Positions 35,015-53,841 of a stretch of DNA of 64,000 nucleotides are shown in pieces. The position numbers were made by a program, and so were the translations under genes. The stretch covers positions 101,573 to 165,572 of the IMG/VR virus record IMGVR_UViG_3300017707_001811; one strand, written 5' to 3'. The stretch is from a virus. Its lineage: Duplodnaviria; Heunggongvirae; Uroviricota; Caudoviricetes. How positions within the stretch are numbered: the first letter of the stretch is position 1; each line of letters begins with the position of its first letter. The notes beneath the pieces were generated by a model that did no database searches, was not told the origin of the DNA, and was given only the letters and a program-made list of their open reading frames with translations.

Positions 35015-35806
35015 ATGGGTAAAAGATTTGTCATTACTGAAGAAGAAAGAAAAGAAATAAAAAAACAACACGGTATTGCAGAAGATTGGTGGGACGATAC
35101 TGTTGAATTTCTTAAAGACACAGGTGAAAAAATAGGAGATTTTGTCTCTGATATTTTTACTGATAGTGATGAAGAGGAGAGTAAAGATGCAGAAGACCTT
35201 AAATCATCAGATTTTTCTTCAGAAGAGAAAAAAGAAATTGAGAAAAAATTAGAAGATACTAAGAAAGAATTATCTTCAAAAATAACAGACTCAAGTTTAA
35301 AAGGATTTAACTTTGATAAGATACCTGATGGTAAAAATAACTACAGGTCGGCTCAAATAACTGCTGATTTGATTCCATTGGTTATTAAAAAGTATGGTAT
35401 TAAGAGAATTATAAGATTTAATGGTGATGACGGAGACGCTAAACATGCGGGTAAACAAGGTCCGAGCATTAGTGAAGAAAAACGTATTTGTGAGAGTAAT
35501 GGATGTGAATTTTATAAATTATCATCAACTAGAAACCAAGATAAAGTTAATTCTTTATTAAAACAAGGTAATACTCTAATACATTGTGCTCACGGTGCGG
35601 ATAGAACAGGTGGTAATGTTGGTGGTTATCTATATGATATAGGATGGGGAGACACAAAAAAAATATGGGATTATACCACAAAATACAATTCATGGGAAAA
35701 TATGGTAATTAATAACCCATCTAAGTTTACAAATGGAGGTTATTTAAATCAAGCCAAAAAGTTTGGGGTCAAAGATATAGAACAAGCTAAAAAATTAAGT
35801 AAATAA
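35015..35806 (+). CDS. protein-tyrosine/dual-specificity phosphatase-like protein with a conserved N-terminal module
   Basis: CX5R motif IHCAHGADRTG; N-terminus MGKRFVITEEERKEIKKQHGIAEDWWDDTVEFLKD is paralogous to the N-termini of 52966..53841(-) and 41335..42642(-). Start set to the internal Met. Confidence 0.55.
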   Translation: MGKRFVITEEERKEIKKQHGIAEDWWDDTVEFLKDTGEKIGDFVSDIFTDSDEEESKDAEDLKSSDFSSEEKKEIEKKLEDTKKELSSKITDSSLKGFNFDKIPDGKNNYRSAQITADLIPLVIKKYGIKRIIRFNGDDGDAKHAGKQGPSISEEKRICESNGCEFYKLSSTRNQDKVNSLLKQGNTLIHCAHGADRTGGNVGGYLYDIGWGDTKKIWDYTTKYNSWENMVINNPSKFTNGGYLNQAKKFGVKDIEQAKKLSK

Positions 35807-35831
35807 ATTTTGTATCATAGTTATTTTACCA

Positions 35832-35839
35832 TATCTTTG
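35832..35839 (+). promoter_or_regulatory. TATCTTTG -7 box 4 nt before the ATG at 35844
   Basis: One of eight genes with this exact geometry. Confidence 0.5.
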
Positions 35840-35843
35840 TGGT

Positions 35844-36326
35844 ATGAATAACGAAATCAAATACAAACCAACAAAAGAGGCGATTATTGGATATAGTGAT
35901 TCTAAAATTGCCCAAAGCGAAACAAACGATTGTGTTGTTAGAGCAATTGCGTCGGCTTTTGAAATGCATTATGATGAGGCACACGACTTTGTTGCAAGTA
36001 ATTGGTTTCGTAGAAATCGTGAGGGAACAAGAAACTTCATTGGAGGTATGCGTAGTATGGTCGACAAAGGAGTTTTAATTAACGGTAAATCATTTTCCAA
36101 TTTGGGTGACCAACATGGTCATATGAAATATGACGTTAAAGTTAAAGGTCAAATTGTTAAACGTAATATGACCACAGGAACTTTTATCAAAAAATTCCCA
36201 AAAGGTCGATACGTTGTGGTTGTTCGTGGACATGCTTTCTCAATCATTGACGGAGTTGTTGTTGGTAATACAGGTGATGCTAAAATGAAGAAGCGTGTTA
36301 TTTTGTATTCTTGGAGAGTTTTATAA
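35844..36326 (+). CDS. hypothetical protein
   Basis: ORF only. Confidence 0.4.
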   Translation: MNNEIKYKPTKEAIIGYSDSKIAQSETNDCVVRAIASAFEMHYDEAHDFVASNWFRRNREGTRNFIGGMRSMVDKGVLINGKSFSNLGDQHGHMKYDVKVKGQIVKRNMTTGTFIKKFPKGRYVVVVRGHAFSIIDGVVVGNTGDAKMKKRVILYSWRVL

Positions 36327-36366
36327 TAAAAATAAGATTTTACTTGACAAGAGTATATTTATAACT

Positions 36367-36415
36367 TACCTTTGTCAAACAATTCAGTAAAGACTGAAAC
36401 GTTCTTTGAAAAATT
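36367..36415 (+). promoter_or_regulatory. tRNA-cluster promoter (TACCTTTG -7 box) plus shared motif gaaacgttctttgaaaaa
   Basis: TACCTTTG at 36367-36374; the 18-mer GAAACGTTCTTTGAAAAA (36397-36414) recurs at 13801-13818 just upstream of the large RNA. Confidence 0.5.
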
Positions 36416-36427
36416 AAAAAAATTGAC

Positions 36428-36452
36428 GTAGTAAGAATAGAGTTACTTCGCA
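36428..36452 (+). repeat. hairpin repeat R1 (AGTAA-N8-TTACT-TCG)
   Basis: gtagtaagaatagagttacttcgca, followed by a T-arm-like minihelix ATTGG-TTCGAAT-CCAAT. Confidence 0.55.
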
Positions 36453-36575
36453 TATTGGTTCGAATCCAATATTTGCCGCAATTTTGGCAGATTAGACAAA
36501 TGGATAAGTCGACGGTCTCATAAACTGTTATAGAAAAACAACCTCTACTCGTTTTCTCGTCATAAAATATTGATT

Positions 36576-36602
36576 GATAGTAATAGATAAGGTTACTTCG
36601 TA
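36576..36602 (+). repeat. hairpin repeat R2
   Basis: gatagtaatagataaggttacttcgta; ends at the 5' end of the following tRNA. Confidence 0.55.
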
Positions 36603-36671
36603 AAATAGCTCAATTGGATGAGCATTTGTATCAGGAACAAAAGGATACGGGTTCAACTCCCGTTTTTACAA
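36599..36671 (+). tRNA. class-I tRNA with anticodon CAG (Leu by anticodon) and C1-A72 mismatch, CCA encoded
   Basis: Acceptor CGTAAAA/TTTTACA, D stem GCTC/GAGC, anticodon arm TTTGT-ATCAGGA-ACAAA, 5-nt variable loop, T arm ACGGG-TTCAACT-CCCGT, then A-CCA. Confidence 0.45.
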
Positions 36672-36714
36672 CCAAAAAAACCTTCCTAACTTTCTTCAAT
36701 CAAACTTATTATCA

Positions 36715-36740
36715 GATAGTGAAGAGACAGTTACTTCAAA
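36715..36740 (+). repeat. hairpin repeat R3
   Basis: gatagtgaagagacagttacttcaaa (AGTGA/TTACT with a compensatory G-U); followed by a degenerate tRNA-like segment with T arm TCGGG-TTCGAAT-CCCGA (36721-36788). Confidence 0.5.
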
Positions 36741-36847
36741 TTTTTCTGGAACAAAAAAGGCTCGGGTTCGAATCCCGACTCCTCTTCGGGGGATGTGGTG
36801 TAGCGGTAGCACTAGATAACACTGTTTCTATTTTCTTCTGATTAAAC

Positions 36848-36931
36848 GCCGAGGTGATGAAAAGGTAGACATGACAGACTTAAAATCTGTTGGGCAGTTC
36901 GCCCGTGCGGGTTCGAATCCCGCCCTCGGTA
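36848..36931 (+). tRNA. tRNA-Leu(TAA)
   Basis: Acceptor GCCGAGG/CCTCGGT, D stem ATG/CAT, anticodon arm ACAGA-CTTAAAA-TCTGT, variable hairpin GGGC-AGTTC-GCCC, T arm GCGGG-TTCGAAT-CCCGC. Confidence 0.75.
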
Positions 36932-36940
36932 CTAAAACAA

Positions 36941-37015
36941 GCCTCCATAGCTCAGCAGGTTTAGAGCGACTGATTTGTAATCAGTAGGTCGTTGGTTCGA
37001 TTCCGACTGGAGGCT
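36941..37015 (+). tRNA. tRNA-Thr(TGT)
   Basis: Acceptor GCCTCCA/TGGAGGC, anticodon arm ACTGA-TTTGTAA-TCAGT, T arm GTTGG-TTCGATT-CCGAC. Confidence 0.8.
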
Positions 37016-37026
37016 CTAATATATAT

Positions 37027-37101
37027 GCTCGGTTCGTCTAGACTGGTCTAGGACACTACCCTTTCACGGTATAAACACGGGTTCGAATCCCGTACCGAGT
37101 A
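37027..37101 (+). tRNA. tRNA-Glu(TTC)
   Basis: GTCT-AGACTGGTCTA-GGAC D arm, anticodon loop CTTTCAC, T arm ACGGG-TTCGAAT-CCCGT; resembles E. coli tRNA-Glu. Confidence 0.75.
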
Positions 37102-37107
37102 CTAAAT

Positions 37108-37137
37108 GAAGTAGTAAGGATAAGAGTTACTTCGCAA
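37108..37137 (+). repeat. hairpin repeat R4
   Basis: gaagtagtaaggataagagttacttcgca. Confidence 0.55.
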
Positions 37138-37195
37138 ATTACTTTTAATGATTCAAGCAAAAACAAACTCTTTCCAACGTTCTCTTCATTAATTT

Positions 37196-37280
37196 GGGAG
37201 TGTCACCATAGCGGCGATTGGCCCGCACTGTAAATGCGGTACCTAAGGTTCCATCGTAGGTTCGAGTCCTACCGCTCCCA
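37196..37280 (+). tRNA. tRNA-Tyr(GTA), class II
   Basis: Acceptor GGGAGTG/CGCTCCC, anticodon arm CCGCA-CTGTAAA-TGCGG, variable arm, T arm GTAGG-TTCGAGT-CCTAC. Confidence 0.75.
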
Positions 37281-37598
37281 CAAAACACGACGAAAATAGG
37301 ATTAAAGCTCCTGTTATCACGACACCAAGATACGGTACGAGTGCGCGCTTAATGACTGTTGCGGTGAGGAGGGAATAAGTAGGGTTTAGCTAACCCAATT
37401 ACGAAAACCTCATAACAAAAATAAAGGACCACCAATCTCAGGTGGTGTAATAAAATGTTTGGGTCGGATGTGGATAATGCTTCCACGCAGTGTTTTAAAT
37501 TTAAAAAAAAAACAAACTTTAAAAAGGGCCCTTCCTGAAATATTGGCTTGTTGGGCCCGAGTTTGTTAAATCCCCCACCTTTTGAGTGGGGTTTTTTA
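37281..37598 (+). ncRNA. ORF-free structured region at the end of the tRNA cluster, ending in an intrinsic terminator
   Basis: Perfect hairpins GGGTTTAGCTAACCC, CACCA-ATCTCAG-GTGGTG, GGGCCC-N21-GGGCCC; terminal CCCCACC-TTTTGA-GTGGGG followed by TTTTTT (37571-37598). Confidence 0.4.
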
Positions 37599-37633
37599 TT
37601 GACATTATAATTTTAATATTATATAATTGAATT

Positions 37634-37987
37634 ATGAAAAAATATCTAACACTTAAAAATTTAGGATGGTTATTAACAACCATTGTAGTCTTCATGCTCG
37701 GAATGAGAGGAGTATCAAAAATCATGGGTACGGATGAAATGGTAGCAAATTTTACTGCTATGAATATGTTACCGTATATGGCTTTAGTTGGTGTAATGGA
37801 AATTGCAGGAGTACTTGCATTGTCAATTCCAAGAACATCAATTTATGGTGCATTACTAATTTCTTCTGTAATGTCTGGAGCGGTTGCAGTACACGTATCA
37901 TTAATGGGTGGTGCAGGTATGTTAGTACCATTGTTTTTAGGAGCTTTGTCGTGGACTGCTCATTGTCTTAGAACTTATACTAAATAA
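37634..37987 (+). CDS. small integral membrane protein
   Basis: Three or four hydrophobic helices. Confidence 0.4.
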   Translation: MKKYLTLKNLGWLLTTIVVFMLGMRGVSKIMGTDEMVANFTAMNMLPYMALVGVMEIAGVLALSIPRTSIYGALLISSVMSGAVAVHVSLMGGAGMLVPLFLGALSWTAHCLRTYTK

Positions 37988-38004
37988 TCTAAGATAATTA
38001 ATCT

Positions 38005-38036
38005 ATTTTAACCCCCATCTTGATAGTTGGGGGTTT
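38005..38036 (+). terminator. intrinsic terminator
   Basis: AACCCCCA-TCTTGATAG-TTGGGGGTT followed by TTTT. Confidence 0.7.
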
Positions 38037-38069
38037 TTTATTATATTTATTTAAACAAATATTTTACAT

Positions 38070-39029
38070 ATGAAAAGATTTTTTTTACTTTTTTTAGTCC
38101 TTATTTCAACAGATTTATTCTCACAATGTGATAGTGATACAATAAATCCTTGGTTTACTTATTTTGAACATGAACCAACAATTAGTTGTGATGGGGATAT
38201 AAGTTTATTGTTCCCTGTTGCTGAAGATAATTGTGATGACAGTGTTGAAATTGCTTTTTATGAAGAAGTAATACCTGGAATCTGCCCAAACAACAGGGAT
38301 ATTTTTAGAGTTTACCGAGCATTTGATGAATTTGGTAATAGTTTCGTACAGACACAAATTATTCATGTTGTAGATGAAACACCTCCAACGTTCCTATACT
38401 TACAACCTGATACTGTATTGGGATGTTTGAGTCAAATAGAATTTGAAGAACCTTTAGTTGAAGATAATTGTGGGAATCATACTTTGACTTCAAGTACAAT
38501 CTTGGACCCAACCTCAACAAACTGCGAATATAATATTACTAAAATATGGACTGCGGTTGACGAGTGTGGTAATAGCGATAGTAGAATACAATTGATAACT
38601 TTATTAGATACAGTACCTCCTAATATTATTGGAGATACTTTAATTAATATTGAACAAGGACAACCAATTAATACGTTATTTGTTACAGTTTTAGATAATT
38701 GTAATAGTTTTGAAATTTATTTCATTGACGAAACTTTATCAGGTGATAACATATTAAGAACTTATACTGCCACAGATGAATGTGGTAATGAATCAACTTT
38801 TATACAAATAATCCACGTAAATACTTCAAATAATGTTGCAATTTGTCATAGATTAGGTAATGGTAACTGGATGACTATGTATGTCCCACAATCATCTGTT
38901 TCCGCTCATTTAGCTCATGGAGATTATTTGGGTCCATGTAATGAAATGAGTAATAACTTTTTTCCATATAACTTTGAGTTAGTGAAAGATGAAGACGGGA
39001 AAGTGAGAAAATACGTCAGAGTTAAATAA
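38070..39029 (+). CDS. secreted protein with HYR/Ig-like repeats
   Basis: Signal peptide; repeated ..TA(V/T)DECGN(S/E)....I..V motifs (four times). Confidence 0.5.
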   Translation: MKRFFLLFLVLISTDLFSQCDSDTINPWFTYFEHEPTISCDGDISLLFPVAEDNCDDSVEIAFYEEVIPGICPNNRDIFRVYRAFDEFGNSFVQTQIIHVVDETPPTFLYLQPDTVLGCLSQIEFEEPLVEDNCGNHTLTSSTILDPTSTNCEYNITKIWTAVDECGNSDSRIQLITLLDTVPPNIIGDTLINIEQGQPINTLFVTVLDNCNSFEIYFIDETLSGDNILRTYTATDECGNESTFIQIIHVNTSNNVAICHRLGNGNWMTMYVPQSSVSAHLAHGDYLGPCNEMSNNFFPYNFELVKDEDGKVRKYVRVK

Positions 39030-39120
39030 GTTTAATGTATATTTATTAGTACGTTCAAGATGAAAGATATTTTTAAAAATTTAACTGAAAAAGAAATTAG
39101 CGAACTTCTGAATAAAACAG

Positions 39121-40269
39121 ATGTTTCTAGAAATGAACGTATTAAAGAAATGCTATTCAAATATATACGTGAAAAAGATACAAAGGATAATAAATGAAGC
39201 ATTAGGAGTACCTAATGAAATTGATATGATTGTTGATATCTATACTGATTTAGTTATAGATAGATTAAAACAAGATATTGTTAATAAGTCATATAAAACA
39301 CGTAAAGTAGATGCCACTAATTACGGAGAGTGGGATATGGTTTATGGTAAATTAAAAATATCCGCAAATGATTCATGGAGATATGTTGAATCATCTCCTA
39401 AGTTTAATATAGATGAATGGAGAAAATTTCCACTATATCGAAATAAATTTGAAATAACCTACCAAGTCATACCTGAAAAAACATTTGAATTACAAGGTAA
39501 GAGTTCCCCACAAATAGGTGGTACCCATGCATTTAAACCAGGTGAAATGAAGATTAAAAATTTAAAGTCTAGAGGGGATGTTTACGATGTTGGATATTTT
39601 GAGTTTGATTTTCATATGAACGAAGAAAATTTTGAAAATCCTGATTCAATGAGAGACGTATTTAAATCAGTTATGGCTCATGAAATTTTTCATTCGTTTC
39701 AGTTGTATACTAAATTTAAAAAAACAGGTAAAGTAGGGTATGGTAAAGAAAGTGTTTATAATTTTTTACAAAACATTTTAAAGAGTAATTTTAGCCAAGA
39801 GTGGAATGATTTTACATATCTATTATATCTTTCATTAAGATTTGAACATCAGGCGAGAATACCACAAGTTTATAATGTTCTTAAAAATAAGAAAATTACA
39901 AACTATGATGAATTTATGGATGAAATTAGAAAAACTGATGTTTGGGATGAAATTAAAAAGTTAAGGTCTTTCTCGGCTAAAAAAATAATTAACGATTTGT
40001 CTAAAATAAGTGGACTTGAAGATATAATCTTTGCACCTATGAAAAGACAAGAGTTACAGCAAAATATTGCAAATTGGAACGACTTTATTGAAATTGTAAT
40101 GCAAAAGTTATCTGAAAATGGTACAGATGTCGGTAAAATAAGAAAGTTAGGTAGTAATATACTAAGTAACCCAGAATCTTTTTTTACTTATTGGGAAAAA
40201 AGATTTCATAACAGAGCCGAGGAATTGGTAAAGAAAATATCTAAATTATATCATTTAGTTAAAAAATAA
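39121..40269 (+). CDS. hypothetical protein
   Basis: ORF; a 45-aa ORF (39060..39197) overlaps its start in another frame. Confidence 0.4.
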   Translation: MFLEMNVLKKCYSNIYVKKIQRIINEALGVPNEIDMIVDIYTDLVIDRLKQDIVNKSYKTRKVDATNYGEWDMVYGKLKISANDSWRYVESSPKFNIDEWRKFPLYRNKFEITYQVIPEKTFELQGKSSPQIGGTHAFKPGEMKIKNLKSRGDVYDVGYFEFDFHMNEENFENPDSMRDVFKSVMAHEIFHSFQLYTKFKKTGKVGYGKESVYNFLQNILKSNFSQEWNDFTYLLYLSLRFEHQARIPQVYNVLKNKKITNYDEFMDEIRKTDVWDEIKKLRSFSAKKIINDLSKISGLEDIIFAPMKRQELQQNIANWNDFIEIVMQKLSENGTDVGKIRKLGSNILSNPESFFTYWEKRFHNRAEELVKKISKLYHLVKK

Positions 40270-40293
40270 TTTGGATATCCAAGAAATAAAACG

Positions 40294-40301
40294 TAGATTT
40301 G
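40294..40301 (+). promoter_or_regulatory. TAGATTTG -7 box
   Basis: 16 nt upstream of the ATG at 40318. Confidence 0.45.
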
Positions 40302-40317
40302 TCTAAAATTAAAACAA

Positions 40318-40704
40318 ATGAAAAAAATAATTCTCTCACTTATCATTTCTTTATTTTCAATCGTGGCTTTTGCTCAGTCATTTGCAAAATCTAAAACGGT
40401 ACAAATCGGAGTTAAGAATGAAACAACAGGTAAATTCGATTTCCAAGAACCCCAAGAAATACCAGCTGTATTGGTAAAAATGGGTGATATTGAGATTATT
40501 ATTTATTCTAAAGTTGAACAAAAATATTTTATATATAGTGAAACATATGATTTTGATGATGGTAATGGTTCTTATTGGTACGCATATGATGCTGAAGGTA
40601 ACAAAGTAAGAATCTATCTATATAAAAATCCAGTGTCAGAAATATTTTTGGGTATTGAATATGGAGATGTTTGTTGGGTATATACTTTGAATTCGATGAA
40701 ATAA
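40318..40704 (+). CDS. secreted hypothetical protein
   Basis: Signal peptide MKKIILSLIISLFSIVAFAQ. Confidence 0.4.
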   Translation: MKKIILSLIISLFSIVAFAQSFAKSKTVQIGVKNETTGKFDFQEPQEIPAVLVKMGDIEIIIYSKVEQKYFIYSETYDFDDGNGSYWYAYDAEGNKVRIYLYKNPVSEIFLGIEYGDVCWVYTLNSMK

Positions 40705-40751
40705 CCATCGAATTTTTTTGCCAATTAAAAAAAAGATTGTATATTTGTCAT

Positions 40752-41345
40752 ATGAAAAATATCCTAATACTTTTAATTTCTTTATTTACATTTTCAGTAA
40801 ATGCTCAAGTTATTGATTACAATAACTTTGACAACAAATTACTTGAACGTTTAGTTTTTGAAGAACTTAACAAATATCGAGATTCTTTAGGTGTTGTAGA
40901 TTTGTTATGGTCAAAAGTAATGTATGAGCAAGTTAGCTGTAAACAAACTGAAATACTTGCTAAAGGTAGTACTTTATATCACCCTGACTTAGATACTTTG
41001 TTTACTGATGAATTCAGAGTAGGGTTATCTAAAGAATCTCAAAAACTAACTGGTATCAAGAGTCAATTTAATTGTGGACCATCTTCTGTAACTACTTTAA
41101 GTGAAAACGGGTTTTCATGGGAATTAAATAAGGTTACTTACCAAGAAATGGCAAAGATTGCAATAATTGCTTGGGACAAATCATATATGCACAAGTGTAA
41201 TCAAAAGTACCCATATGTTGTTGATGGAGGAGGAAAAGGATTTGTGTCAATATCCGCAAGAGTAAATAAGTCAAAAACTAAAATATTTATAACTTGTAAT
41301 TTTTCACAAGTTCACAAAGAAAAAAAAACCACTACTAGTCAGTAG
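40752..41345 (+). CDS. secreted hypothetical protein
   Basis: Start moved to the ATG 4 nt after the TATATTTG box (40740-40747); signal peptide MKNILILLISLFTFSVNAQ. Confidence 0.4.
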   Translation: MKNILILLISLFTFSVNAQVIDYNNFDNKLLERLVFEELNKYRDSLGVVDLLWSKVMYEQVSCKQTEILAKGSTLYHPDLDTLFTDEFRVGLSKESQKLTGIKSQFNCGPSSVTTLSENGFSWELNKVTYQEMAKIAIIAWDKSYMHKCNQKYPYVVDGGGKGFVSISARVNKSKTKIFITCNFSQVHKEKKTTTSQ

Positions 41346-42642
41346 TGGTTTTTACTATATCTTTTTTCTCAAACTTAGGTAATTTAATATCTAAACGTCT
41401 ATTGTTAATTGTCTGATTAAAATCTTTAACTTCAGGCCATTTTTTACCCTTGTCAAATCTATCAGTTTCACCTAAAGGGTTTGCAACAAATGTTCCTGAA
41501 AGTTCTGGTAATGATTTATCTAATTCTTGAATTATTGCTTTAGCTCTTTCTTCAGATAAACATTTATTGTATTCATTTCTGGGTCTACCACCAGGTTTTC
41601 TACAAGCTGGTAAAGTAGTTGTTGTTTTACTATTTGAATCCGACATAATTCCCTTTGGGTCCTCATCAATAGAAGATGATGTGGTCACATAAGCTTTTTG
41701 AGACTTTAAAAAGTTAATATATTCACCATATATTTTATCGTCGTATTTAGTTTTAACATTTTTAATTTCTTTAATAAAGTTTTCTAATTCAAGTTTACCG
41801 TTATCTGTTAAATCTGTTTTATCAAATTTAAATGGGTCAGTCATTTCAGCCTTAATTTCAATAGAAACAACCATAGGAGGTTTTATCTCAGGAGCATTAA
41901 TTACACCAGTTCCTTCAGGACCTTTCATGGCGTTAATACCAATTCCGTAATTATTTACGAATTCTTTATATTTCATATCTGAATAATTAGTACCTGTAGA
42001 TACCGTACGACTTCCAGTATTTCTAAAACTTATACTACTTCTAACCCAAGATGTGGAATTATAATCTTCTTTACTAGGTATAAATAATTCATTTAAACTA
42101 ACATTAGGGTTATTAATTTTTTCATATGGTTTGTCTAAAGTTTGAATTATTGGATATATTTGAAATATTGTAGGAATTCCATTTTCTAACGCTAAAGCAA
42201 AACCAAGATAATTTGGACGTAAGTCTTGCCCAAATTTTACATTTTGTAAAATCAATCCCAAAATTGCAGGATTACCCTCGGCCGCTCCACTTCTATACTG
42301 GTCTCTTGTAATAGTAATTACTTTATTATCAGTAAATTGTCCTGTAGTTAAATTAAAATCAACGTCTAAAATATTACCACTTAAAGTCTCCTCTTGGTGC
42401 ATTTTTTCATATTTTTGTTTTCCAGTTCTTCTACCATCTATTACTTCATCTACTACATCTAAAACTTCTAAATTTCCATTTGTAACATTAATGTAATATC
42501 CTCCTAACTTAAATAAAGTAGGTGTAGATTCTTCAGGTTTATCACCTGTAGTAAAATCCTGCTCAACCAAAATACCCTTGGTTAAATACATTGATAATAT
42601 TTGTGATTTTTCTTGTTCCGTAACTAAAAATCTTTTACTCAT
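41335..42642 (-). CDS. protein with C-terminal OmpA-like peptidoglycan-binding domain and a conserved N-terminal module
   Basis: C-terminus LSEERAKAIIQEL...NPLGETDRFD...NNRRLDIKL; N-terminus MSKRFLVTEQEKSQI shared with 35015 and 53841(-). Confidence 0.5.
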   Translation of the reverse strand: MSKRFLVTEQEKSQILSMYLTKGILVEQDFTTGDKPEESTPTLFKLGGYYINVTNGNLEVLDVVDEVIDGRRTGKQKYEKMHQEETLSGNILDVDFNLTTGQFTDNKVITITRDQYRSGAAEGNPAILGLILQNVKFGQDLRPNYLGFALALENGIPTIFQIYPIIQTLDKPYEKINNPNVSLNELFIPSKEDYNSTSWVRSSISFRNTGSRTVSTGTNYSDMKYKEFVNNYGIGINAMKGPEGTGVINAPEIKPPMVVSIEIKAEMTDPFKFDKTDLTDNGKLELENFIKEIKNVKTKYDDKIYGEYINFLKSQKAYVTTSSSIDEDPKGIMSDSNSKTTTTLPACRKPGGRPRNEYNKCLSEERAKAIIQELDKSLPELSGTFVANPLGETDRFDKGKKWPEVKDFNQTINNRRLDIKLPKFEKKDIVKTTTD

Positions 42643-42768
42643 AATTGTATTTTAAATATAAATATAAAAAAATAAAGAAATATCATTCATTATATTGTTA
42701 TTTGATTTTTTTTAAATTATGATTGTAAAAGAATTTCAAAAAAATTTTAAAAGTTGAAAAAAAAGTAT

Positions 42769-43667: not shown

Positions 43668-43742
43668 GAAGAAGTAGCTCAGACGGTAGAGCATAGGGTT
43701 AGAAATCCCTTGTGCCGCGAGGTTCGATTCCCGCCTTCTTCA
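43668..43742 (+). tRNA. tRNA with irregular anticodon arm (4-bp stem with 8-nt loop TTAGAAAT, or 3-bp stem with anticodon AGA) and a bulged T stem
   Basis: Acceptor GAAGAAG/CTTCTTC perfect, D stem GCTC/GAGC, T loop TTCGATT, discriminator A. Confidence 0.45.
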
Positions 43743-47243: not shown

Positions 47244-47651
47244 ATGGGTTTATTACATATCTTTGGTTGGAATGGCATTCTTATTAACAATCTCATTAAT
47301 TTATTAATAATGATTAAAATTAACGGTAAAATATTATCTGATAATCCATTTTTAAATCACGAAAAAATTCAAGATTTAGTATTTTATGACGCTCCATTAG
47401 CGGTATTATATAAATACGAAAATGAATACTATGTATGGTGGTGGTTGGATATGGATGGTGTGTGCAATCGACATGGTGTATTTAAAACAACGATAAAAAA
47501 ATTAGAAAGTTGGAGAGAGTTTGATTATAGTTGGGATAAATTAAAAGATGCTATTGATAGTGATTTATCATACATTATTAATTTAGATACTAGTGGGGAT
47601 TTTGTTGTTGGTTGGGAAGTAACATCTGACGTTATATTAGATTATGAATGA
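47244..47651 (+). CDS. hypothetical protein
   Basis: ORF only. Confidence 0.35.
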   Translation: MGLLHIFGWNGILINNLINLLIMIKINGKILSDNPFLNHEKIQDLVFYDAPLAVLYKYENEYYVWWWLDMDGVCNRHGVFKTTIKKLESWREFDYSWDKLKDAIDSDLSYIINLDTSGDFVVGWEVTSDVILDYE

Positions 47652-47974
47652 ATACACAAAAAGAAATAATCCTATGTGCCGCTATTTGGTATAAAGACAT
47701 ACCAATAAAAAAAGAAATTCCAAAAGACGCTGTATTACCAATCAATTGTGATAGAGGGTTAGTATTCTGCGGATATAGACATAATCATTGTATGTATACA
47801 ATGGTTGCGGTTACGGGACTAAGAAGTGTTGAAACTGAAATAGGTGAGTATGTCCAAGGGTTCCTCACTAACAAAAATAGATTTGTAAATAGAGAAGAGG
47901 CGGCTAAAATCCATATATCTAACGGACATAAAATTGATTTCGAAAATAGATTATTCAGTGAAGACCTCTATTAA
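47648..47974 (+). CDS. hypothetical protein
   Basis: ORF only. Confidence 0.35.
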   Translation: MNTQKEIILCAAIWYKDIPIKKEIPKDAVLPINCDRGLVFCGYRHNHCMYTMVAVTGLRSVETEIGEYVQGFLTNKNRFVNREEAAKIHISNGHKIDFENRLFSEDLY

Positions 47975-48185
47975 TAGTGAATTATGTAAAAAAATAGTTA
48001 AATCAGTTTATCCTGATTTAGTTATAAACAACATTGAAATAATACCAAGAAATATATTAGTGGAAGGTAAATGGGTTGAGGACTTACCTGCAATTTTTGT
48101 TGGTATCGGAAGCACTGAACACACAGATATTAGTGAAACTTTAACTAAACTAAGTGGACTTGAGTTTAATGTTTTTATTTCGTAA
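47934..48185 (+). CDS. hypothetical protein
   Basis: ORF only. Confidence 0.3.
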   Translation: MISKIDYSVKTSINSELCKKIVKSVYPDLVINNIEIIPRNILVEGKWVEDLPAIFVGIGSTEHTDISETLTKLSGLEFNVFIS

Positions 48186-48212
48186 AAAATTAGATAATTA
48201 AAAATTTTAGAG

Positions 48213-48220
48213 TATATTTG
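48213..48220 (+). promoter_or_regulatory. TATATTTG -7 box
   Basis: 15 nt upstream of the ATG at 48236. Confidence 0.45.
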
Positions 48221-48235
48221 TAAAAAATATAAGAA

Positions 48236-48967
48236 ATGTTCAAGTTCTATGAGGTCGGAGGTAAAATAAGAGACGAAATCCTTGGTTTAAAATCAAAGGA
48301 TGTTGATTACGTTGCGGTACCAAGTGACGAGTTAATTAATGATATTAGCTCACCTCATTCTATGTTTGGAATACTCGAAGGATTTTTAAAAGAAGAAGGT
48401 TTTGAAATATTTTTAATTACACCTGATTGTTTTACGATTAGAGCCAAGTTTCCCCAAGGGCATACATACGAAGGTGTTGCTGATTTTGTAATGGCGAGAA
48501 AGGAATTGGGATATATTCCTGGCACAAGAACTCCATTGGTTAAACCAGGAACTCTATACGATGATTTGGAAAGACGTGACTTTACATTAAACGCATTGGC
48601 TAAAGATTCAGATGGAAACATTATTGATTTCTTTGGTGGTGAGGATGATTTGAAACATGGTATGTTAAGAACACCACTAGATTGTAAAGTAACTTTTGAT
48701 GATGACCCTTTACGTATTTTGAGAGCAATTAGGTTTTCAATTACTAAGGGATTTACTATGTCTAGAAAGATAGTTGAAGAAATATACATCTACGACTACG
48801 ACAATAAAATGTCTGTAGTATCTACAGAAAGAATCAGAGAAGAGCTCCTCAAGTGTTTTAAACATGACACGATTAAAACATTAAACACTTTGGAGGAGTT
48901 TTACAGATTAAGAGATTATATCTTTAAAAACAATATTTTGTGGTTAAAACCAACTTTAGAAAAATGA
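48236..48967 (+). CDS. tRNA nucleotidyltransferase (CCA-adding, polymerase-beta-type) head domain
   Basis: GGKIRDEILGLKSKDVDYV and ERRDFTLNALA motifs. Confidence 0.75.
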   Translation: MFKFYEVGGKIRDEILGLKSKDVDYVAVPSDELINDISSPHSMFGILEGFLKEEGFEIFLITPDCFTIRAKFPQGHTYEGVADFVMARKELGYIPGTRTPLVKPGTLYDDLERRDFTLNALAKDSDGNIIDFFGGEDDLKHGMLRTPLDCKVTFDDDPLRILRAIRFSITKGFTMSRKIVEEIYIYDYDNKMSVVSTERIREELLKCFKHDTIKTLNTLEEFYRLRDYIFKNNILWLKPTLEK

Positions 48968-49257
48968 ATATGAAGAAAGCAAGTAATATAAAATTAATAA
49001 TGTTTTTAATTTTATTAATATTTTTATCGTTAGGTGTCTTTTATTTTTTTAAAACCGTAACAATTGGTGAAAAAATAACAATTGAATATCAAAAAACAAC
49101 AGTGGTTTCTATTAAAAGAAAACCACCAAAAAACGTACATGAAGAAATTAATTTGTGGTATGAAATAGAACTATCTAATGGTAATAAGTTCGTATCATCA
49201 CATAGATATTTAGTTGGTGATACAGTATATTATGAAATCTATAAAATAAATAAGTGA
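48940..49257 (+). CDS. small membrane protein
   Basis: N-terminal TM helix. Confidence 0.35.
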   Translation: MVKTNFRKMNMKKASNIKLIMFLILLIFLSLGVFYFFKTVTIGEKITIEYQKTTVVSIKRKPPKNVHEEINLWYEIELSNGNKFVSSHRYLVGDTVYYEIYKINK

Positions 49258-49499
49258 TGGAAGTAAGTATGGACGGACTAAGAAACCATTTGTTAAGAAG
49301 TTATAACTCTTTGGTTTCTAAATTAAATAAACGAATTGACGGTGACGACATTGTTGATTTGGAAATTTACGATATTGAAAGAGAACTTGAGGGTATTAGA
49401 AGTTGTATTGTTACACTAGCTTTTACATCACTTGAAGGTGAAGGAGGGTGGAAATCAATGGATGACAGTACTCACTTTGAGCAATTTAATCCTGAATAA
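49254..49499 (+). CDS. hypothetical protein
   Basis: ORF only. Confidence 0.3.
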   Translation: MMEVSMDGLRNHLLRSYNSLVSKLNKRIDGDDIVDLEIYDIERELEGIRSCIVTLAFTSLEGEGGWKSMDDSTHFEQFNPE

Positions 49500-49517
49500 G
49501 AGTTGGAAGATTAAAAA

Positions 49518-49841
49518 TTGTATCAGAAATTGCAAAAGAAGTTTTGGCGGGAGAGTAATCCCGCCGTATCTTTGTTAAATATAAAAAACACTCAAATGAC
49601 TAGCAACGAATTTAATAAGAAATATAAAGAATATCTTGGTGAAAGACACTATGGATTGGATATTGAGGTCCCCCAACTAACACTTTGGTTAGACGAAAAA
49701 TTCCAAGAATTCATCAAAATTCCTGAATTTAAATACTATCAAATCAAAACAAAATTTGGTTATGGTAGATTCTATTGTGATGGGGTACCTCAAGAACAAA
49801 TAACTGAGGTTGAGGTAAAAATTAGAGAACTTTGTAAATAA
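49518..49841 (+). CDS. hypothetical protein
   Basis: ORF only. Confidence 0.35.
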   Translation: MYQKLQKKFWRESNPAVSLLNIKNTQMTSNEFNKKYKEYLGERHYGLDIEVPQLTLWLDEKFQEFIKIPEFKYYQIKTKFGYGRFYCDGVPQEQITEVEVKIRELCK

Positions 49842-49855
49842 AAAAGAGGTATATT

Positions 49856-50149
49856 ATGTCAGGAGGACATTTTGATTATAATCAATACAAAATCGGATAT
49901 ATTGCCGATGAAGTAGAGCAACTTATTGAAAGAAACGGTAAGGAAATACCAAAACAATATCGTGATGATTGGTCGGGTACCAATTACTACGAATATCCAC
50001 CTGAAGTAATTGAGAAATTCAAAGAAGGTGTTGAGATTCTTCGTAAAGCTCAAATTTACGCTCAAAGGATTGATTGGTTGGTTTCAGGTGATGATGGTAA
50101 TGAATCTTTTTTGAGAAGACTGAAAGAAGATTTGGAAAAATTGAAATAG
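49856..50149 (+). CDS. hypothetical protein
   Basis: ORF only. Confidence 0.35.
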   Translation: MSGGHFDYNQYKIGYIADEVEQLIERNGKEIPKQYRDDWSGTNYYEYPPEVIEKFKEGVEILRKAQIYAQRIDWLVSGDDGNESFLRRLKEDLEKLK

Positions 50150-50167
50150 TTTTTGTATATTTGCAAT

Positions 50168-50866
50168 ATGATTCTAAAGATAGAAAAAGATATAAAAGGA
50201 ATTTTCCCAAAAATTTGGATATGTTCTGACCCCCACTACAACCACAAAAATATTTGTAGAGGTGTTACGAATTGGAGAACCTTGGATGGAGAAGTTCCCG
50301 AAGAACAAACTCGCGATTTCCCAACCATTGAGAAAATGAACGAGGCAATTCTGAATGGGATTAACTGGAATGTTGGACAAGATGACATTTTAATTTGTCT
50401 TGGAGACTGGTCTTTTGGTGGGTTTGAGTCTATTAAACAATTCAGAGATAGAATTGTTTGTAAAAATGTACACTTAGTACTTGGTAATCACGACCACCAC
50501 ATTGAACGTAACAGAGAGAACATTAAGGCTTTATTTAGTTCAGTTTCAGAATACCTGAGAGTTGTTGTGATGGAACCGATTAAAAAAGATGTTACTAAAC
50601 GACATGAGTTTGTATGTATGCACTACCCAATACAAAGTTGGGACGGTTTAAATAAAGGAGTTTATCATCTACACGGACATGTACACTTACCAAATGAACG
50701 AAAGTTTGGTCGTGGTAAGAAAATGGACGTTGGTTTTGACGGACATCCTGAATTCAGACCGTACAATCTACTAAAAGAAGTTGTGCCGATGTTAAGTAAG
50801 AGAGAAATGTTGTCGGATATGTCAAATGACCATCACCTTGAAAGATTATTAAACAGTGATAAATAA
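50168..50866 (+). CDS. calcineurin-like metallophosphoesterase
   Basis: ICSDPHYNH, LGDWSFGG, LGNHDHH, HGHVH motifs; start 4 nt after the TATATTTG box (50156-50163). Confidence 0.75.
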   Translation: MILKIEKDIKGIFPKIWICSDPHYNHKNICRGVTNWRTLDGEVPEEQTRDFPTIEKMNEAILNGINWNVGQDDILICLGDWSFGGFESIKQFRDRIVCKNVHLVLGNHDHHIERNRENIKALFSSVSEYLRVVVMEPIKKDVTKRHEFVCMHYPIQSWDGLNKGVYHLHGHVHLPNERKFGRGKKMDVGFDGHPEFRPYNLLKEVVPMLSKREMLSDMSNDHHLERLLNSDK

Positions 50867-51455
50867 TTTTGAACACATAAAAAAATTTTTAATATTTGAA
50901 TCTGAAGACGATTACTATCTTCTTCAGATTCTTAGACGTAAAAAAGAAAATTCAGATGTTGGTAATAAACCTAACGTTGTTAAGACTTATTATATCGACT
51001 CTATTGATTTTTTTGATAGGGTTATTCCTGAAATAATTGCCATCTCTAATGAAAGAAATAGCCGAGCTTATATAAATCTAAATCGAAGGTCCTTCAGAAA
51101 AACTGCAATTAGGACTTTACAAGAGATTGCGAATAATATTGAGTCAGGAAATTATAAATCCGCAAGAAAGGCTTACGAAAAAATATCAGGAAAATCTCCT
51201 AATGAGAAAGATAAAAAATGGGTAATTGATATAGATTGGAAGGATTTTCCTGATAAAAAAACTGAGATTGCTAATCTGGTTTTATATGCTATTGAGTTAC
51301 AATCAGAGACTGATAATGTACCGATGAGCGAACCAATCCCAACTAAAAACGGTATTCACTATATAACTAGACCATTTAATCTAAAGAAATTTAATGAAAG
51401 GTACCCAAAAATTGAGGTACATAAAGATAGATACACTTTATTATATATCCCTTAA
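50856..51455 (+). CDS. hypothetical protein
   Basis: ORF only. Confidence 0.4.
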   Translation: MINNFEHIKKFLIFESEDDYYLLQILRRKKENSDVGNKPNVVKTYYIDSIDFFDRVIPEIIAISNERNSRAYINLNRRSFRKTAIRTLQEIANNIESGNYKSARKAYEKISGKSPNEKDKKWVIDIDWKDFPDKKTEIANLVLYAIELQSETDNVPMSEPIPTKNGIHYITRPFNLKKFNERYPKIEVHKDRYTLLYIP

Positions 51456-51456
51456 T

Positions 51457-52458
51457 ATGAAATTTGATTTTAAAGACATTGTTTTAGTACCTGAAGTTTT
51501 ATCGTCAATCTCGTCTAGGTCAGAAATAGATATTACTGATGAATTTGGTAAACTACCATTGATTGTTTCCCCTATGGATACTGTGATAAATGAAGGTAAT
51601 TCTGAATTATTTGAAAAATTAGGATTTACAGTTTGTTTACCTAGAGGAGAGAATGTTACCGAAAATCAATTTAGGTCTATTTCTTTGGACGACTTTGAAA
51701 TTTTGACTGATTATTTAGTAGTAACTAATGATTATTTATTAGTTGATATTGCAAATGGTCATATGGAAAAATTATATTCACTATGTGAAAAGTTTTTAGA
51801 AAAAAATAATGGTGATAAATTAATGATTGGTAATATTGCCAATCCAAAAACCTACAAAAAATTTGCAGAGATTGGGGTTGGTTTTATTAGGGTCGGTATC
51901 GGAGGTGGTAGTGGTTGTCTAACCTCAGCAAATACTGGTGTTCATTATCCCATGGCTTCACTAATTAATGAGTGTTACCAATTTAAAAAGGATAATGGTT
52001 ATACAACTAAAATAGTTGCTGATGGAGGTTTTAGAAACTATGATGATATTATTAAAGCCATTGCATTAGGTGCGGATTATGTTATGTTAGGAGGAATGTT
52101 AAATAAAAGTTTAGAATCGTGTTCTCCTGTTAAATTATTTGGTAAATTAAAAATTTCTACTAAATTTGCAAATAAATTGTGGGCAAATTATCCAAAACTC
52201 AGAAAGTTTTTTTACAAAGACTTCAGAGGTATGAGTACTAAAGAAGTTCAAAAAAAATGGGGTAGAAAGAATATTAAAACATCTGAAGGGGTACACAGGG
52301 TTAACAAAGTTGAGTACAAGTTAGATACGTGGGTTGATAACTTTAAAGACTATTTAAAATCTGCAATGTCATATACTAACTCAAAAAATTTAAATAGTTT
52401 TAGATACAGTGAGTTTGTAAAAATTACAGAAAACGCATATAAAAGATTTAATAAATAA
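51457..52458 (+). CDS. GMP reductase-like (IMPDH/GMPR family, no CBS insert)
   Basis: KDIVLVPEV...SPMDTV...GIGGGSGCLTS (active-site Cys loop)...VADGGFRNYDDIIKAIALGADYVMLGG; length matches GuaC rather than IMPDH. Confidence 0.7.
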   Translation: MKFDFKDIVLVPEVLSSISSRSEIDITDEFGKLPLIVSPMDTVINEGNSELFEKLGFTVCLPRGENVTENQFRSISLDDFEILTDYLVVTNDYLLVDIANGHMEKLYSLCEKFLEKNNGDKLMIGNIANPKTYKKFAEIGVGFIRVGIGGGSGCLTSANTGVHYPMASLINECYQFKKDNGYTTKIVADGGFRNYDDIIKAIALGADYVMLGGMLNKSLESCSPVKLFGKLKISTKFANKLWANYPKLRKFFYKDFRGMSTKEVQKKWGRKNIKTSEGVHRVNKVEYKLDTWVDNFKDYLKSAMSYTNSKNLNSFRYSEFVKITENAYKRFNK

Positions 52459-52463
52459 TTTTT

Positions 52464-52880
52464 ATGATGAAAACACTTTTTATTGTTAGAGGAGTACCAG
52501 GTTCAGGTAAATCAACGTTTGCTCATGCTATTTGGAATAATTATGCTATTTGTGAAGCCGACCAGTACTTCATAGATAAAGAAACAGGTGAATATAAGTT
52601 TAATCCTGATGAACTAAAAAACGCTCACCAATGGTGTAGAGATGAGGTTGAAACAAAAATGAAAGATAATCAAGCAAATCCTCAATACTACCCTGAAATT
52701 GTAGTTTCAAATACATTCACACAGGAGTGGGAAATGGAACCTTACTTTAAACTAGCTGAAAAGTATGGTTATAAAGTATTTTCTTTTATTGTTGAGAATC
52801 GACACGGGGGCGTGAATACTCATGGTGTTCCAGAAGATAAAATTCAAGTAATGAAAGATAGATTTCAAATCAAACTATGA
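52464..52880 (+). CDS. small P-loop kinase (polynucleotide/nucleoside kinase-like)
   Basis: Walker A VRGVPGSGKST. Confidence 0.5.
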   Translation: MMKTLFIVRGVPGSGKSTFAHAIWNNYAICEADQYFIDKETGEYKFNPDELKNAHQWCRDEVETKMKDNQANPQYYPEIVVSNTFTQEWEMEPYFKLAEKYGYKVFSFIVENRHGGVNTHGVPEDKIQVMKDRFQIKL

Positions 52881-52965
52881 AATACTTAAAAAAAATTTGG
52901 AAATATCTTATTTTTGTACAAGAAGAAGTTGATAAGATTAGAGAAAAGTCTTCGTTTGGTAAATT

Positions 52966-53841
52966 TTAAACCCTAAGACTTTTTTTAATTTCATCTCCAG
53001 CATCAAACATGTCAATGTTTGAAATCGCCCAAGAGTTTCTACTTCTTTTAGCTTCTTCACGGTTTTTAGGTCTTTCAACATTATCGACAATCCAATCAAT
53101 CCATCCTTTAATTCCTTTATCACCTGAAGGTTTTTTACTTTGGACATGTTTTGCCATGAATTTGATTTGTTTATCGCAATCAGATAATACTTTCATCTTT
53201 TCTTCAGGAGACTCATCCTCAACCCCGTATTCCTTTAACAACGCAATGCCTAATCCACCACATATATTGTATTGCCATAACCCAAAAGAACAATAACCAC
53301 CTATACTTGATTCAGGGTGTTTTTTAGCATAGTCACCACCATCACCTCTCGATTTACATTTAAACCCAGATTCTTTAGCTGCATTAGCAACTAATGCGAT
53401 TGATAATTTTTTGTTGTTTAAAATTGAATCTAATTTTCTGTACAAATCAACTGGTGATATTTTACCATCGCCTGACTCAAATTTAAATTTTTCTGACTTA
53501 ACAATATTAATCTCTTTATCTATTTTTTCTTTTTCGTCTTTACTAAAGTCCATGTCCTCAACCGACTCATCACTATCATCATCTAAATCTAACTTATCTT
53601 TAATAAAGTCGACCGCATCCTCCCCAACATCCTTTAAAAATTCTAATGTATCATCTAACCAATCCTCGTTTAAATTATACATTCCTCTTATTTGTTTTTT
53701 TTCGTCTTCTGAAATTATGAAACGTTTGGACATAGTAATATTTTTTTTATAAATACATCCAAAAATAAATTTGTTACTGATTATATTTTTACTATCTTTG
53801 TTTAAAATTAGTTTATGACAAAAAAAGAAAAATTCTTTCAT
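52966..53841 (-). CDS. hypothetical protein with the conserved N-terminal module
   Basis: N-terminus MSKRFIISEDEKKQIRGMYNLNEDWLDDTLEFLKD is paralogous to 35015(+) and 42642(-); C-terminal half Gly/Cys-rich. Confidence 0.5.
   Translation of the reverse strand: MKEFFFFCHKLILNKDSKNIISNKFIFGCIYKKNITMSKRFIISEDEKKQIRGMYNLNEDWLDDTLEFLKDVGEDAVDFIKDKLDLDDDSDESVEDMDFSKDEKEKIDKEINIVKSEKFKFESGDGKISPVDLYRKLDSILNNKKLSIALVANAAKESGFKCKSRGDGGDYAKKHPESSIGGYCSFGLWQYNICGGLGIALLKEYGVEDESPEEKMKVLSDCDKQIKFMAKHVQSKKPSGDKGIKGWIDWIVDNVERPKNREEAKRSRNSWAISNIDMFDAGDEIKKSLRV
53793..53800 (+). promoter_or_regulatory. TATCTTTG -7 box
   Basis: 14 nt upstream of the ATG at 53815. Confidence 0.45.

Follow-up and report, generated by a model that had tools for sequence, protein, structure and literature searches.

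The capsid-targeting sequence (CTS) of phage T4 reads MKTYQEFIAE, and T7 gp16 and other ejection proteins carry a peptidoglycan-cleaving domain within the capsid and are ejected into the periplasm. The T4 prohead protease gp21 recognizes a hydrophobic-x-Glu pattern and cuts after the Glu, a pattern that gp21 contains as well ('LIE-9'). Among other substrates, the protease acts on the CTSs of the internal proteins, Alt and gp24, which are 10-20 residues long, and an Asp at CTS position 10 prevents processing (PMC5694885, PMC9026906). In the jumbo phage SPN3US, the paralogues gp53 and gp54 have identical N-termini (PMC5694885). Here we analyzed a 64,000-nucleotide stretch of the Caudoviricetes record IMGVR_UViG_3300017707_001811 (positions 101,573 to 165,572; hereafter the window), in which three genes, called A, B and C, encode proteins that begin with a common short leader and continue into different enzymatic or binding domains. 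On the basis of sequence comparisons, we consider it moderately likely that this leader is a cleavable capsid-targeting propeptide functioning like the T4 CTS.

Gene A (35015-35806, + strand; 263 aa) encodes the leader, a helical and acidic linker and a Cys-X5-Arg phosphatase of the dual-specificity (DSP) type; gene B (52966-53733, - strand; 255 aa), the leader, a linker and a PF18013 phage-tail-lysozyme domain; and gene C (41335-42642, - strand; 435 aa), the leader, a central part of ~230 aa and an OmpA-like C-terminal domain. Their N-termini, MGKRFVITEEERKEIKKQHGIAEDWWDD.. at 35015 (+), MSKRFIISEDEKKQIRGMYNLNEDWLDD.. at 53733 (-) and MSKRFLVTEQEKSQILSMY.. at 42642 (-), conform to M[SG]KRF.[IV][ST]E.E[KR]..I...[MQ][YH], and a six-frame motif scan of the window with the reported N-terminus gave these three matches only, each at a Met opening an open reading frame (ORF). 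The leader of A comprises residues 1-23 (MGKRFVITEEERKEIKKQHGIAE; 35015-35083, +) and contains two [ILVM]-x-E motifs, ITE9 and IAE23; that of B likewise spans residues 1-23 (MSKRFIISEDEKKQIRGMYNLNE; 53665-53733, -), with ISE9 and LNE23, and that of C residues 1-27 (MSKRFLVTEQEKSQILSMYLTKGILVE; 42562-42642, -), with VTE9 and LVE27 and homology to A and B over residues 1-19. By BLASTP, A and B shared 35 of 85 residues (41%, E=2e-15), C and B 12 of 19 (residues 1-19, E=3e-5) and C and A 8 of 19 (E=0.003). A hidden Markov model (HMM) of the leader, built from A, B and their orthologues with C left out, recovered C with E=4.7e-7 in 129,006 six-frame residues.

The three proteins thus do share an N-terminal module, as the initial annotation had claimed, but it is not uniform: ~19-23 residues are common to A, B and C, whereas a further region reaching to about residue 85 is found in A and B only. 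The 40-residue module described there is in fact a general leader of 23 residues plus this second, A/B-specific region. In A, residues 24-95 (35084-35299, +) are predicted to contain helices at 25-36 and 40-45 as well as an acidic segment and one long helix, and are homologous to the counterpart in B only; residues 24-95 of B (53449-53664, -) are homologous to residues 24-85 of A and are conserved in the B orthologues P0002-P0012. At the nucleotide level the three leaders use different synonymous codons (Arg4 is AGA in A and C and CGT in B; Thr/Ser8 is ACT, TCA and ACG), which indicates that selection acts on the peptide and not on the RNA, and conservation at the RNA level was ruled out on this ground. 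Two further candidates were discarded. The segment ..SE.EK..I..MY.. is reminiscent of helix 1 of a helix-turn-helix (HTH), but no HTH family matched A, B or C and the sequence does not continue as an HTH; DUF6576 covers residues 25-54, that is, after the leader.

The leader is not restricted to the window. A word-indexed search that used the alignment of the three modules as query produced no match at E<=0.01 among 5.8 billion proteins, because the module is too short for a database of that size. In a profile search, a 48-column N-terminus profile was compared with 1.84 billion (1.84e9) protein representatives at E<=1e-3, and 116 clusters were retrieved, ~110 of which matched from residue 1-3 and ~4-6 from well inside the protein; HMM matches with E<0.05 in the window and in the related loci were also nearly all at ORF starts. 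Relative entropy amounted to 1.3-5.6 bits at positions 1-23 and fell below 0.8 from position 25 on, except for 1.10 bits at position 28, so that the conserved part ends precisely with the second Glu motif. The general leader reads M-[SG]-K-[RK]-[FLI]-[IV]-I-[TS]-E-x-E-[KR]-x-x-I-[KR]-x-[LM]-Y-N-[LI]-N-E, with Q, G or D as the next residue; E9, E11, I15 and Y19 are invariant across the 116 clusters (<=50% identity). A Pfam scan of 20 longer matches identified Phage_lysozyme2 (in four), VanY and SLT as cargo, and no family in the other 14.

Leaders of other sequence precede the same mature proteins. Besides the general leader we distinguished flavour 1 (MK[IL]xI[TS]ESQLKxLI..E), flavour 2 (MNLQENIxRIKE[VI]MG..E) and a third type (M..IKNFSEFLNE). 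Homologues of the A domain begin with MNLQENIxRIKEVMG.., MKIIITESQL.. or M..F.EFLNE.., some homologues of the B domain carry MKLKITESQLKRLVEQE, and the C orthologue at 545-1654 of locus L018 starts with MGKKVIKLTEADIENIVKKVIKEQ and then aligns with C. Since homologues of A, B and C bear other flavours, the leaders are, as judged from these alignments, exchangeable units ahead of conserved mature proteins. Several may be found together: the 322-kb contig L014 contains at least eight leader genes of all flavours in one 20-kb stretch, including those of a phosphatase, an OmpA-like protein and a membrane protein, and L100 contains at least five, in one of which a Peptidase_C39-like domain begins six residues past the leader.

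These leaders contain a Glu motif of the gp21 cleavage type. I[ST]E was present at positions 7-9 in 110 of 110 leaders and [ILVM]xE at positions 21-23 in 94 of 110, and all flavours end in hydrophobic-x-Glu. When residues 4-35 of 83 non-redundant leaders of all flavours were compared with the rest of the same proteins, [ILVM]xE was enriched 4.9x, [ILVM]NE 9x and [ILV][ST]E 11x, counts that are partly non-independent because the leaders within each set are related; the controls [ILVM]xD, [ILVM]xQ and [AGS]xE gave 1.06x, 0.72x and 1.35x. At least one [ILVM]xE-type site occurred in 78 of the 83 leaders, and in segment shuffles the observed count was reached in 0 of 2000 trials (z=5.9 for [ILVM]xE and z=11.2 for [ILVM][NST]E, vs z=2.0 for [ILVM]xD). 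The phiKZ-type A/S/G-x-E motif was rejected, as [AGS]xE was not enriched. The proposal of the initial annotation that the module is a packaging or ejection signal is partly supported and agrees best with the computed evidence in its T4-CTS version, whereas the parallel it drew with phiKZ inner-body proteins fails, both for want of [AGS]xE enrichment and because the propeptide is short.

Relatives of the window link leader genes to head genes. In the 177-kb contig L015 the B homologue P0020 lies one gene away from a Gp23 major capsid protein (MCP; PF07068), in a cluster with an acidic scaffold-like protein of 505 aa full of [ILV]xE, a Peptidase_S77 of the gp21 family (PF03420), Portal_T4 and TerL. 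The N-terminus of the L015 MCP (..NKWDKLGFLEG..LYENQASQLINE|ASSD..FPIIRRV, with ..QLINE|ASSD at the site) resembles by eye that of T4 gp23 (..NKWKPLLEG..IFENQ..LTE65|AEIG..MGMVRRA), an analogy that predicts for this MCP an [LI]-x-N-E site type as in the leaders. The same head-gene synteny was observed in L002/3, L007/8 and L016, the L015 protease has 593 relatives in IMG/VR, and the arrangement is that published for the Bacteroidota 'bS21 phages' (PMC9723584). Within the same region of L015, a homing endonuclease of the endonuclease VII type (10700-11380, -) is encoded between the MCP and the leader-lysozyme genes; it carries an HTH at its N-terminus and was the only genuine HTH look-alike. 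We also noted a phage bS21 ribosomal protein gene (16481-16663, +) on the opposite strand within the head cluster.

Leader genes and head genes also have an upstream motif in common. TATTTAT is located 16 nt upstream of the start codon of A (34992-34998, +), 15 nt upstream of that of B (53749-53755, -) and 15 nt upstream of that of C (42658-42664, -), and it falls 4-24 nt upstream of A, B, C and a gene at 15688. It preceded 19 of 27 leader genes vs 73 of 330 others (odds ratio 8.4, p=5e-7), and it was directional, being found upstream of 92 of 357 genes compared with 28 for its reverse complement (window, L014 and L015). The spacing to the start codon was bimodal (4-8 and 12-20 nt), and in L015 the motif stands ahead of the portal, protease and scaffold genes. 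TATTTAT is probably, from its position and orientation, a phage promoter element, so placed that the 5' leaders would be very short, and its distribution would be consistent with co-expression of leader genes and head genes.

The neighborhood of a leader gene may differ between related genomes. The IMG/VR contig L013 is syntenic with the window (L013 704-11634 vs window 15014-23577, protein identity 57-90%), the common genes being those at 15014-18617, DnaK (81%) and the gene at 22828. The window also has genes in common with the 290-296-kb IMG/VR contigs L009, L010 and L012. In L013 a leader gene (MGKRIVISEQEKKDIKDMYNLNEDW.., with other cargo) lies between DnaK and the homologue of the gene at 22828, a place taken in the window by other genes and by tRNAs; from this slot between conserved genes we conclude that leader genes occupy variable loci. 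Such a location, together with the similar distance of TATTTAT ahead of all three genes and the longer A/B block, which agrees with a swap, is what one would expect if the shared start were a by-product of recombination, that is, a cassette of promoter and first codons spread by illegitimate or homologous exchange and with no targeting role. But the leader DNA has diverged at synonymous sites while the peptide was kept, the peptide is conserved over the 116 clusters with its four invariant residues, and conservation ends exactly after the second Glu motif; we regard this explanation as very improbable.

The cargo of A is a phosphatase by motif and fold. Its catalytic domain (residues 96-263; 35300-35803, +) contains HCAHGADRTGG at residues 190-200, and H190, C191 and R197 were invariant in 81 sequences. 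The AlphaFold2 model had a mean pLDDT (predicted local distance difference test) of 87.7, and >90 over residues 100-263, and in Foldseek it matched TpbA of P. aeruginosa best (4r0t, E=1.6e-5) and, after it, Siw14, PTPMT1, PFA-DSP and laforin; the probability was 1.00 to TpbA, Siw14 and PTPMT1, and sequence identity to this group of phosphatases was 13-19%. Pfam phosphatase scores remained under the curated cut-offs. The loop motif and the DSP fold bear out the CX5R phosphatase assigned to this C-terminus in the initial annotation. In the model the leader forms a separate, low-confidence helix (residues 9-19), and residues 20-24, with IAE23, form a loop before helix 2. Most homologues of A combine a leader, a PG_binding_1-like domain and the phosphatase, some with a C-terminal SGNH domain, and in a subset, found in phage contexts, the leader is replaced by a membrane anchor or a signal peptide. 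TpbA is periplasmic, which by analogy fits the membrane-anchored and peptidoglycan-binding-domain homologues of A. The orthologue P0026 keeps the whole N-terminal module, and since A and P0026 hold the B-type region of ~85 residues where most homologues have the peptidoglycan-binding domain, the comparison indicates that a domain swap within this phage lineage gave A its B-type N-terminal region.

For gene B, the start at 53841 given previously is the first ATG of the longest ORF and has to be replaced by 53733 (MSKRF), because this is where P0001, the gene call in the database, and all of the orthologues P0002-P0012 begin, and TATTTAT is found 15 nt upstream. The C-terminal region, formerly described as Gly/Cys-rich, is more than a tail of that composition: residues 96-255 (52969-53448, -) constitute a PF18013 lysozyme domain, according to both Pfam and Foldseek. 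The Pfam match of B itself (E=1.7e-4, 22.2 bits) is under the 28.2-bit cut-off; a PF18013 match is precomputed in most of the B homologues listed, reaching 1.4e-34 in P0213, and the best Foldseek matches were phi29 gp13 structures (3csr/3csq, probability 1.00, E=0.011). The AlphaFold2 model places the leader outside the catalytic fold, as a low-confidence helix (residues 9-18) followed by a loop (19-22). The whole module is kept in P0002-P0012, and M23 and lysozyme domains are combined in the homologues L001, L004, L011 and P0013. As a separate observation, PF18013-like domains occur without the phage leader in signal-peptide proteins of 770-980 aa in L181-L185, which are contigs of 37-42% GC from GTDB metagenome-assembled genomes labelled Nanoarchaeota or Methanosarcinales.

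That B belongs to the fold family of a phi29 tail enzyme (PF18013, 'phage tail lysozyme') bears on the possibility that the leader serves for docking at a virion site other than the capsid, namely the tail tip or baseplate, to which it would attach interchangeable wall-degrading or wall-binding enzymes in the manner of conserved tailspike N-terminal adaptors. The recognizable cargo is nearly all peptidoglycan-active (lysozyme, SLT, VanY, M23, SGNH and OmpA-like), and the leader genes of L015 adjoin head genes among large genes without PHROGs annotation, both of which would suit tail docking. However, a helix of 23 residues is short for a structural adaptor, the leader has low AlphaFold2 confidence and is not packed on the domain, and more than 100 cargo families, with at least eight in one 20-kb stretch, are many for the sites of a tail. 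An invariant, Glu-specific [ILVM]xE motif, with Asp not enriched, would moreover have no role in such a peptide, and we consider tail docking unlikely.

The C-terminal domain of C (about residues 256-430; 41353-41877, -; ..YNKCLSEERAKAI..GETD..NRRLDI) matched Pfam OmpA with E=0.042. As a single sequence, without a profile, C matched no OmpA structure, but a profile of C and its homologues in L017 and L018 matched 13 OmpA-like structures, among them 4rha, 4erh and 2mqe, with a best E of 4e-4 over YNKCLSEERAKAI, a match that takes in the ..N..LS..RA.. core for peptidoglycan binding. This three-homologue profile supports the OmpA-like C-terminus assigned earlier. Together, the cargo identified in this work comprises peptidoglycan hydrolases, peptidoglycan-binding domains and a phosphatase domain that elsewhere has a signal anchor, for which reason, and because most A homologues have a PG_binding_1-like domain and a subset a membrane anchor or signal peptide, we consider the cell envelope to be the probable target. 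The injected effectors suggested in the initial annotation thus remain plausible, with the amendment that the recognizable cargo points to the envelope and not to a cytoplasmic take-over.

A, B and C might not be virion components, and the leader might be an intracellular propeptide or targeting helix that keeps the enzymes inactive or, at the time of lysis or envelope remodelling, routes them to the periplasm by a phage-specific path independent of Sec. Elsewhere among phages, this phosphatase and an SGNH (Lipase_GDSL-family) esterase bear a membrane anchor or a signal peptide where the leader would be (P0105, P0125-P0144, P0082 and L099), which implies that the site of action is extracytoplasmic and that these relatives deliver the enzymes from within the cell; the PG_binding_1-like domain of most A homologues is also in keeping with this explanation. 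The leader, on the other hand, is hydrophilic and has neither a hydrophobic core nor a twin-arginine motif, soluble endolysins need no leader, and the window already has an SLT enzyme with a signal peptide that could serve as endolysin. As the Glu-specific motif, the adjacency to head genes and the promoter-like motif common with head genes would also be left without explanation, an intracellular role appears improbable to us. Of note, a Sec or Tat signal peptide and a signal-arrest-release anchor were rejected as identities of the leader, which is charged and hydrophilic and lacks a hydrophobic core or RR motif. A further reading, which we hold to be quite doubtful, is that the leader might be a signal for phage-specific, non-Sec export of folded envelope enzymes from the cytoplasm of the infected Bacteroidota cell, interchangeable with the Sec anchors of sister phages; if true, it would represent a previously unknown protein-export signal in an abundant group of freshwater jumbo phages. 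In the T4-like phage contig L099, the anchored phosphatase and GDSL/SGNH esterase (5244-8666) lie beside a Phage_lysozyme gene, a gene group that suggests a lysis or envelope-remodelling cassette.

A capsid-targeting propeptide of the T4 type is the reading that fits the evidence best, because the leader is strictly N-terminal, has a sharp boundary and a Glu-specific ending, is exchangeable, and occurs in relatives that have a gp21-type protease and head genes adjacent to leader genes. The multiplicity of leader genes in L014, the TATTTAT motif, the separate leader helix in the models of A and B, and the match of B to phi29 gp13, a wall-degrading enzyme carried by virions, also speak for it. 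According to this proposal, the leader would bind the scaffolding core during prohead assembly, so that the protein would be enclosed in the capsid. A gp21-type S77 protease would then cut after Glu9 and again after Glu23 (Glu27 in C) and so set the mature enzyme free, the two cuts leaving small leader fragments of ~9 and 14 residues. For SPN3US, extra sites within propeptides were suggested to aid the clearance of fragments from the head (PMC5694885). At infection the enzymes would be ejected along with the DNA to work on the envelope, B by cutting peptidoglycan, C by binding it and A by dephosphorylating a periplasmic or envelope substrate.

Several observations weigh against this proposal. 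The 64-kb window contains no head genes and the S77 protease is known only from relatives; neither the protease nor the scaffold-like, Gp23 and Portal_T4 genes were seen on the closest contigs L004, L012 and L013, the protease scan covering 80 loci of its 593 relatives. The enrichment counts are, as stated above, partly non-independent. Four genes of L014 (13729-14481, 12301-13662, 8590-9795 and 18785-19531, all -) contain internal leader-like helices (positions 13944, 13128, 9378 and 19255), such as KKIKITESQLMRLVKKTVNEEED, which comes after a transmembrane segment, and NKLHEDVSKIREMMNLVTE, at residue 187; gene fusion or internal processing could account for them. The mature A, B and C are acidic (pI 4.9-5.6), unlike the basic internal proteins of T4, and the known wall hydrolases of myoviruses, like phi29 gp13, sit in tails and not in heads. 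The A/B homology runs ~60 residues past the proposed cleavage site, and a pure capsid-targeting sequence, as read from the alignments, does not explain this second region. The phosphatase and SGNH domains carry Sec-type membrane anchors in other phages and, by analogy, these enzymes could act from inside the infected cell. Finally, packaging and cleavage are predictions from the sequences.

The window may hold additional leader genes. A possible fourth (15688-15999, +; 103 aa; MTRYVFTEKQLEKIKEDL..) resembles flavour 1, with TATTTAT 17 nt upstream, an orthologue in L013 and a weak HMM score; a possible fifth (16856-17884, +; 342 aa; MKIVLNETQYSKLITEDLG..) gave E=1e-3 to 3e-3 with the flavour-1 HMM. 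The latter, whose leader-like N-terminus reads MKIVLNETQYSKLITE.., contains the HExxH motif HESNH, and the gene at 39121-40269 (+) combines HEIFH with a leader-like N-terminus (..KKIQRIINE|ALG); the two products may be leader-tagged metallopeptidases.

The window is AT-rich, with ~31% GC; nearly all of its genes are on the + strand, and it contains 23-25 tRNA genes, the total of ~25 being reached because Rfam adds to the ARAGORN list two tRNA-like genes absent from it (28069-28142, + and 43668-43742, +; 53 and 52 bits). The 'bS21 phages' have genomes of 293-331 kb, 31-34% GC and 5-25 tRNAs (PMC9723584), and the related 'moraphages' a gp21-type protease and DnaK (PMC12619734); the window encodes a full-length Hsp70/DnaK (18731-20593, +; Pfam E=2e-256), as is also described for the latter group. 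Searches of 50,697 GenBank phages, by tblastn with A, B and three leader consensus peptides of 22-24 aa and by megablast with 20 kb of the window, revealed no relative, a null that for the short peptides is possibly technical; their sole match was the thymidylate synthase of Flavobacterium phage immuto. A scan of IMG/VR with gene A retrieved no relative, a metagenome scan yielded a single 1.1-kb match at 76%, and contigs bearing the exact proteins were no longer than 3.4 kb. PHROGs gave no useful annotation to A, B and C or to the genes around them in L015's counterpart region, and a literature search found neither the leader strings nor a CTS described for these lineages.

Other elements of the window are worth recording. 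A full-length GOLLD RNA (Rfam RF02032; 14302-14717, +; 316.8 bits, E=7e-90, model positions 1-416 of 416) is followed directly downstream by a tRNA-Met (14741-14813), and a Ro60/TROVE and vWA protein (33053-34678, +) is encoded directly upstream of gene A; no Y-RNA-like family was above the Rfam threshold in the window scan. On the minority strand, a candidate endolysin, namely an SLT lytic transglycosylase that starts with a signal peptide or anchor, lies adjacent to a DUF192 protein (12443-13009, - and 13028-13387, -). Signal peptides of the Bacteroidota type, ending in ..SFSQ, ..LFSQ, ..SLGQ, ..GYGQ and ..VNAQ, are present on the products of genes at 28381, 38070, 62530 and 63160 (+) and 40671-41345 (+). 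TATTTAT precedes four of these signal-peptide genes. The gene at 40671-41345 and gene C are convergent, an arrangement that is kept in L017.

If the leader is CTS-like, a single rule (Met1, a helix of ~23 residues and an [ILVM]-x-Glu end) would predict, from sequence, the head-packaged, ejected proteins of an abundant group of uncultured freshwater Bacteroidota jumbo phages, and the leader would be a ready tag for packaging foreign proteins, as the T4 CTS has been used. The predicted cargo, which includes peptidoglycan hydrolases, peptidoglycan-binding proteins and an atypical phosphatase, is unusual and suggests a capsid-borne attack on the envelope. If the leader marks another route, it would be a new targeting signal.

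The individual domains have well-described counterparts. TpbA, Siw14, PTPMT1, PFA-DSP and laforin have the fold and the HCX5R loop of A, whereas the fusion to a phage leader and to a peptidoglycan-binding or SGNH domain is specific to this phage family. The tail-knob wall-degrading enzyme gp13 of phi29, which joins a lysozyme and an M23 domain, shares fold and Pfam family with the B domain; however, it is a tail protein of a small podovirus, and the order of the two domains is opposite in the B homologues, where M23 comes first. T7 gp16 and the other ejection proteins of its kind, in contrast, show no homology to the proteins described here, have no common cleavable leader and are not known to be processed by a protease. 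The jumbo phages phiKZ, 201phi2-1 and SPN3US package many ejection proteins into their heads and process them with a protease, but the propeptides of these proteins are mostly >100 residues long and cut at A/S/G-x-E, whereas here the leader has 23 residues and the head genes are of the T4 type.

The closest parallel is the T4 CTS, found on IPI, IPII, IPIII, Alt and gp24. In both cases a short N-terminal propeptide is placed on otherwise unrelated proteins of one phage, with a hydrophobic-x-Glu ending of the gp21 cleavage type, here assigned from its sequence; relatives of the window encode a protease of the gp21 family (PF03420) as well as an MCP and a portal of the T4 type, and the cargo genes are in variable loci. 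By eye, the leader of the window shows no similarity to the T4 CTS, which only the third flavour (M..IKNFSEFLNE) of the A homologues resembles, and since sequence similarity is absent we propose that the leader works like the T4 CTS, not that it is homologous to it. It differs from the T4 CTS in being longer (23 aa), with two conserved Glu motifs, in the coexistence of at least three flavours in one genome, and in its cargo, which is acidic and envelope-directed, whereas that of T4 consists of small basic proteins and an ADP-ribosyltransferase. In summary, the concept is already known from the T4 CTS and the leader is not a new kind of element; what is new is a sequence family without similarity to the T4 CTS, with 116 clusters for one flavour and several flavours per genome, in a group of uncultured jumbo phages, and the envelope-directed nature of its cargo.

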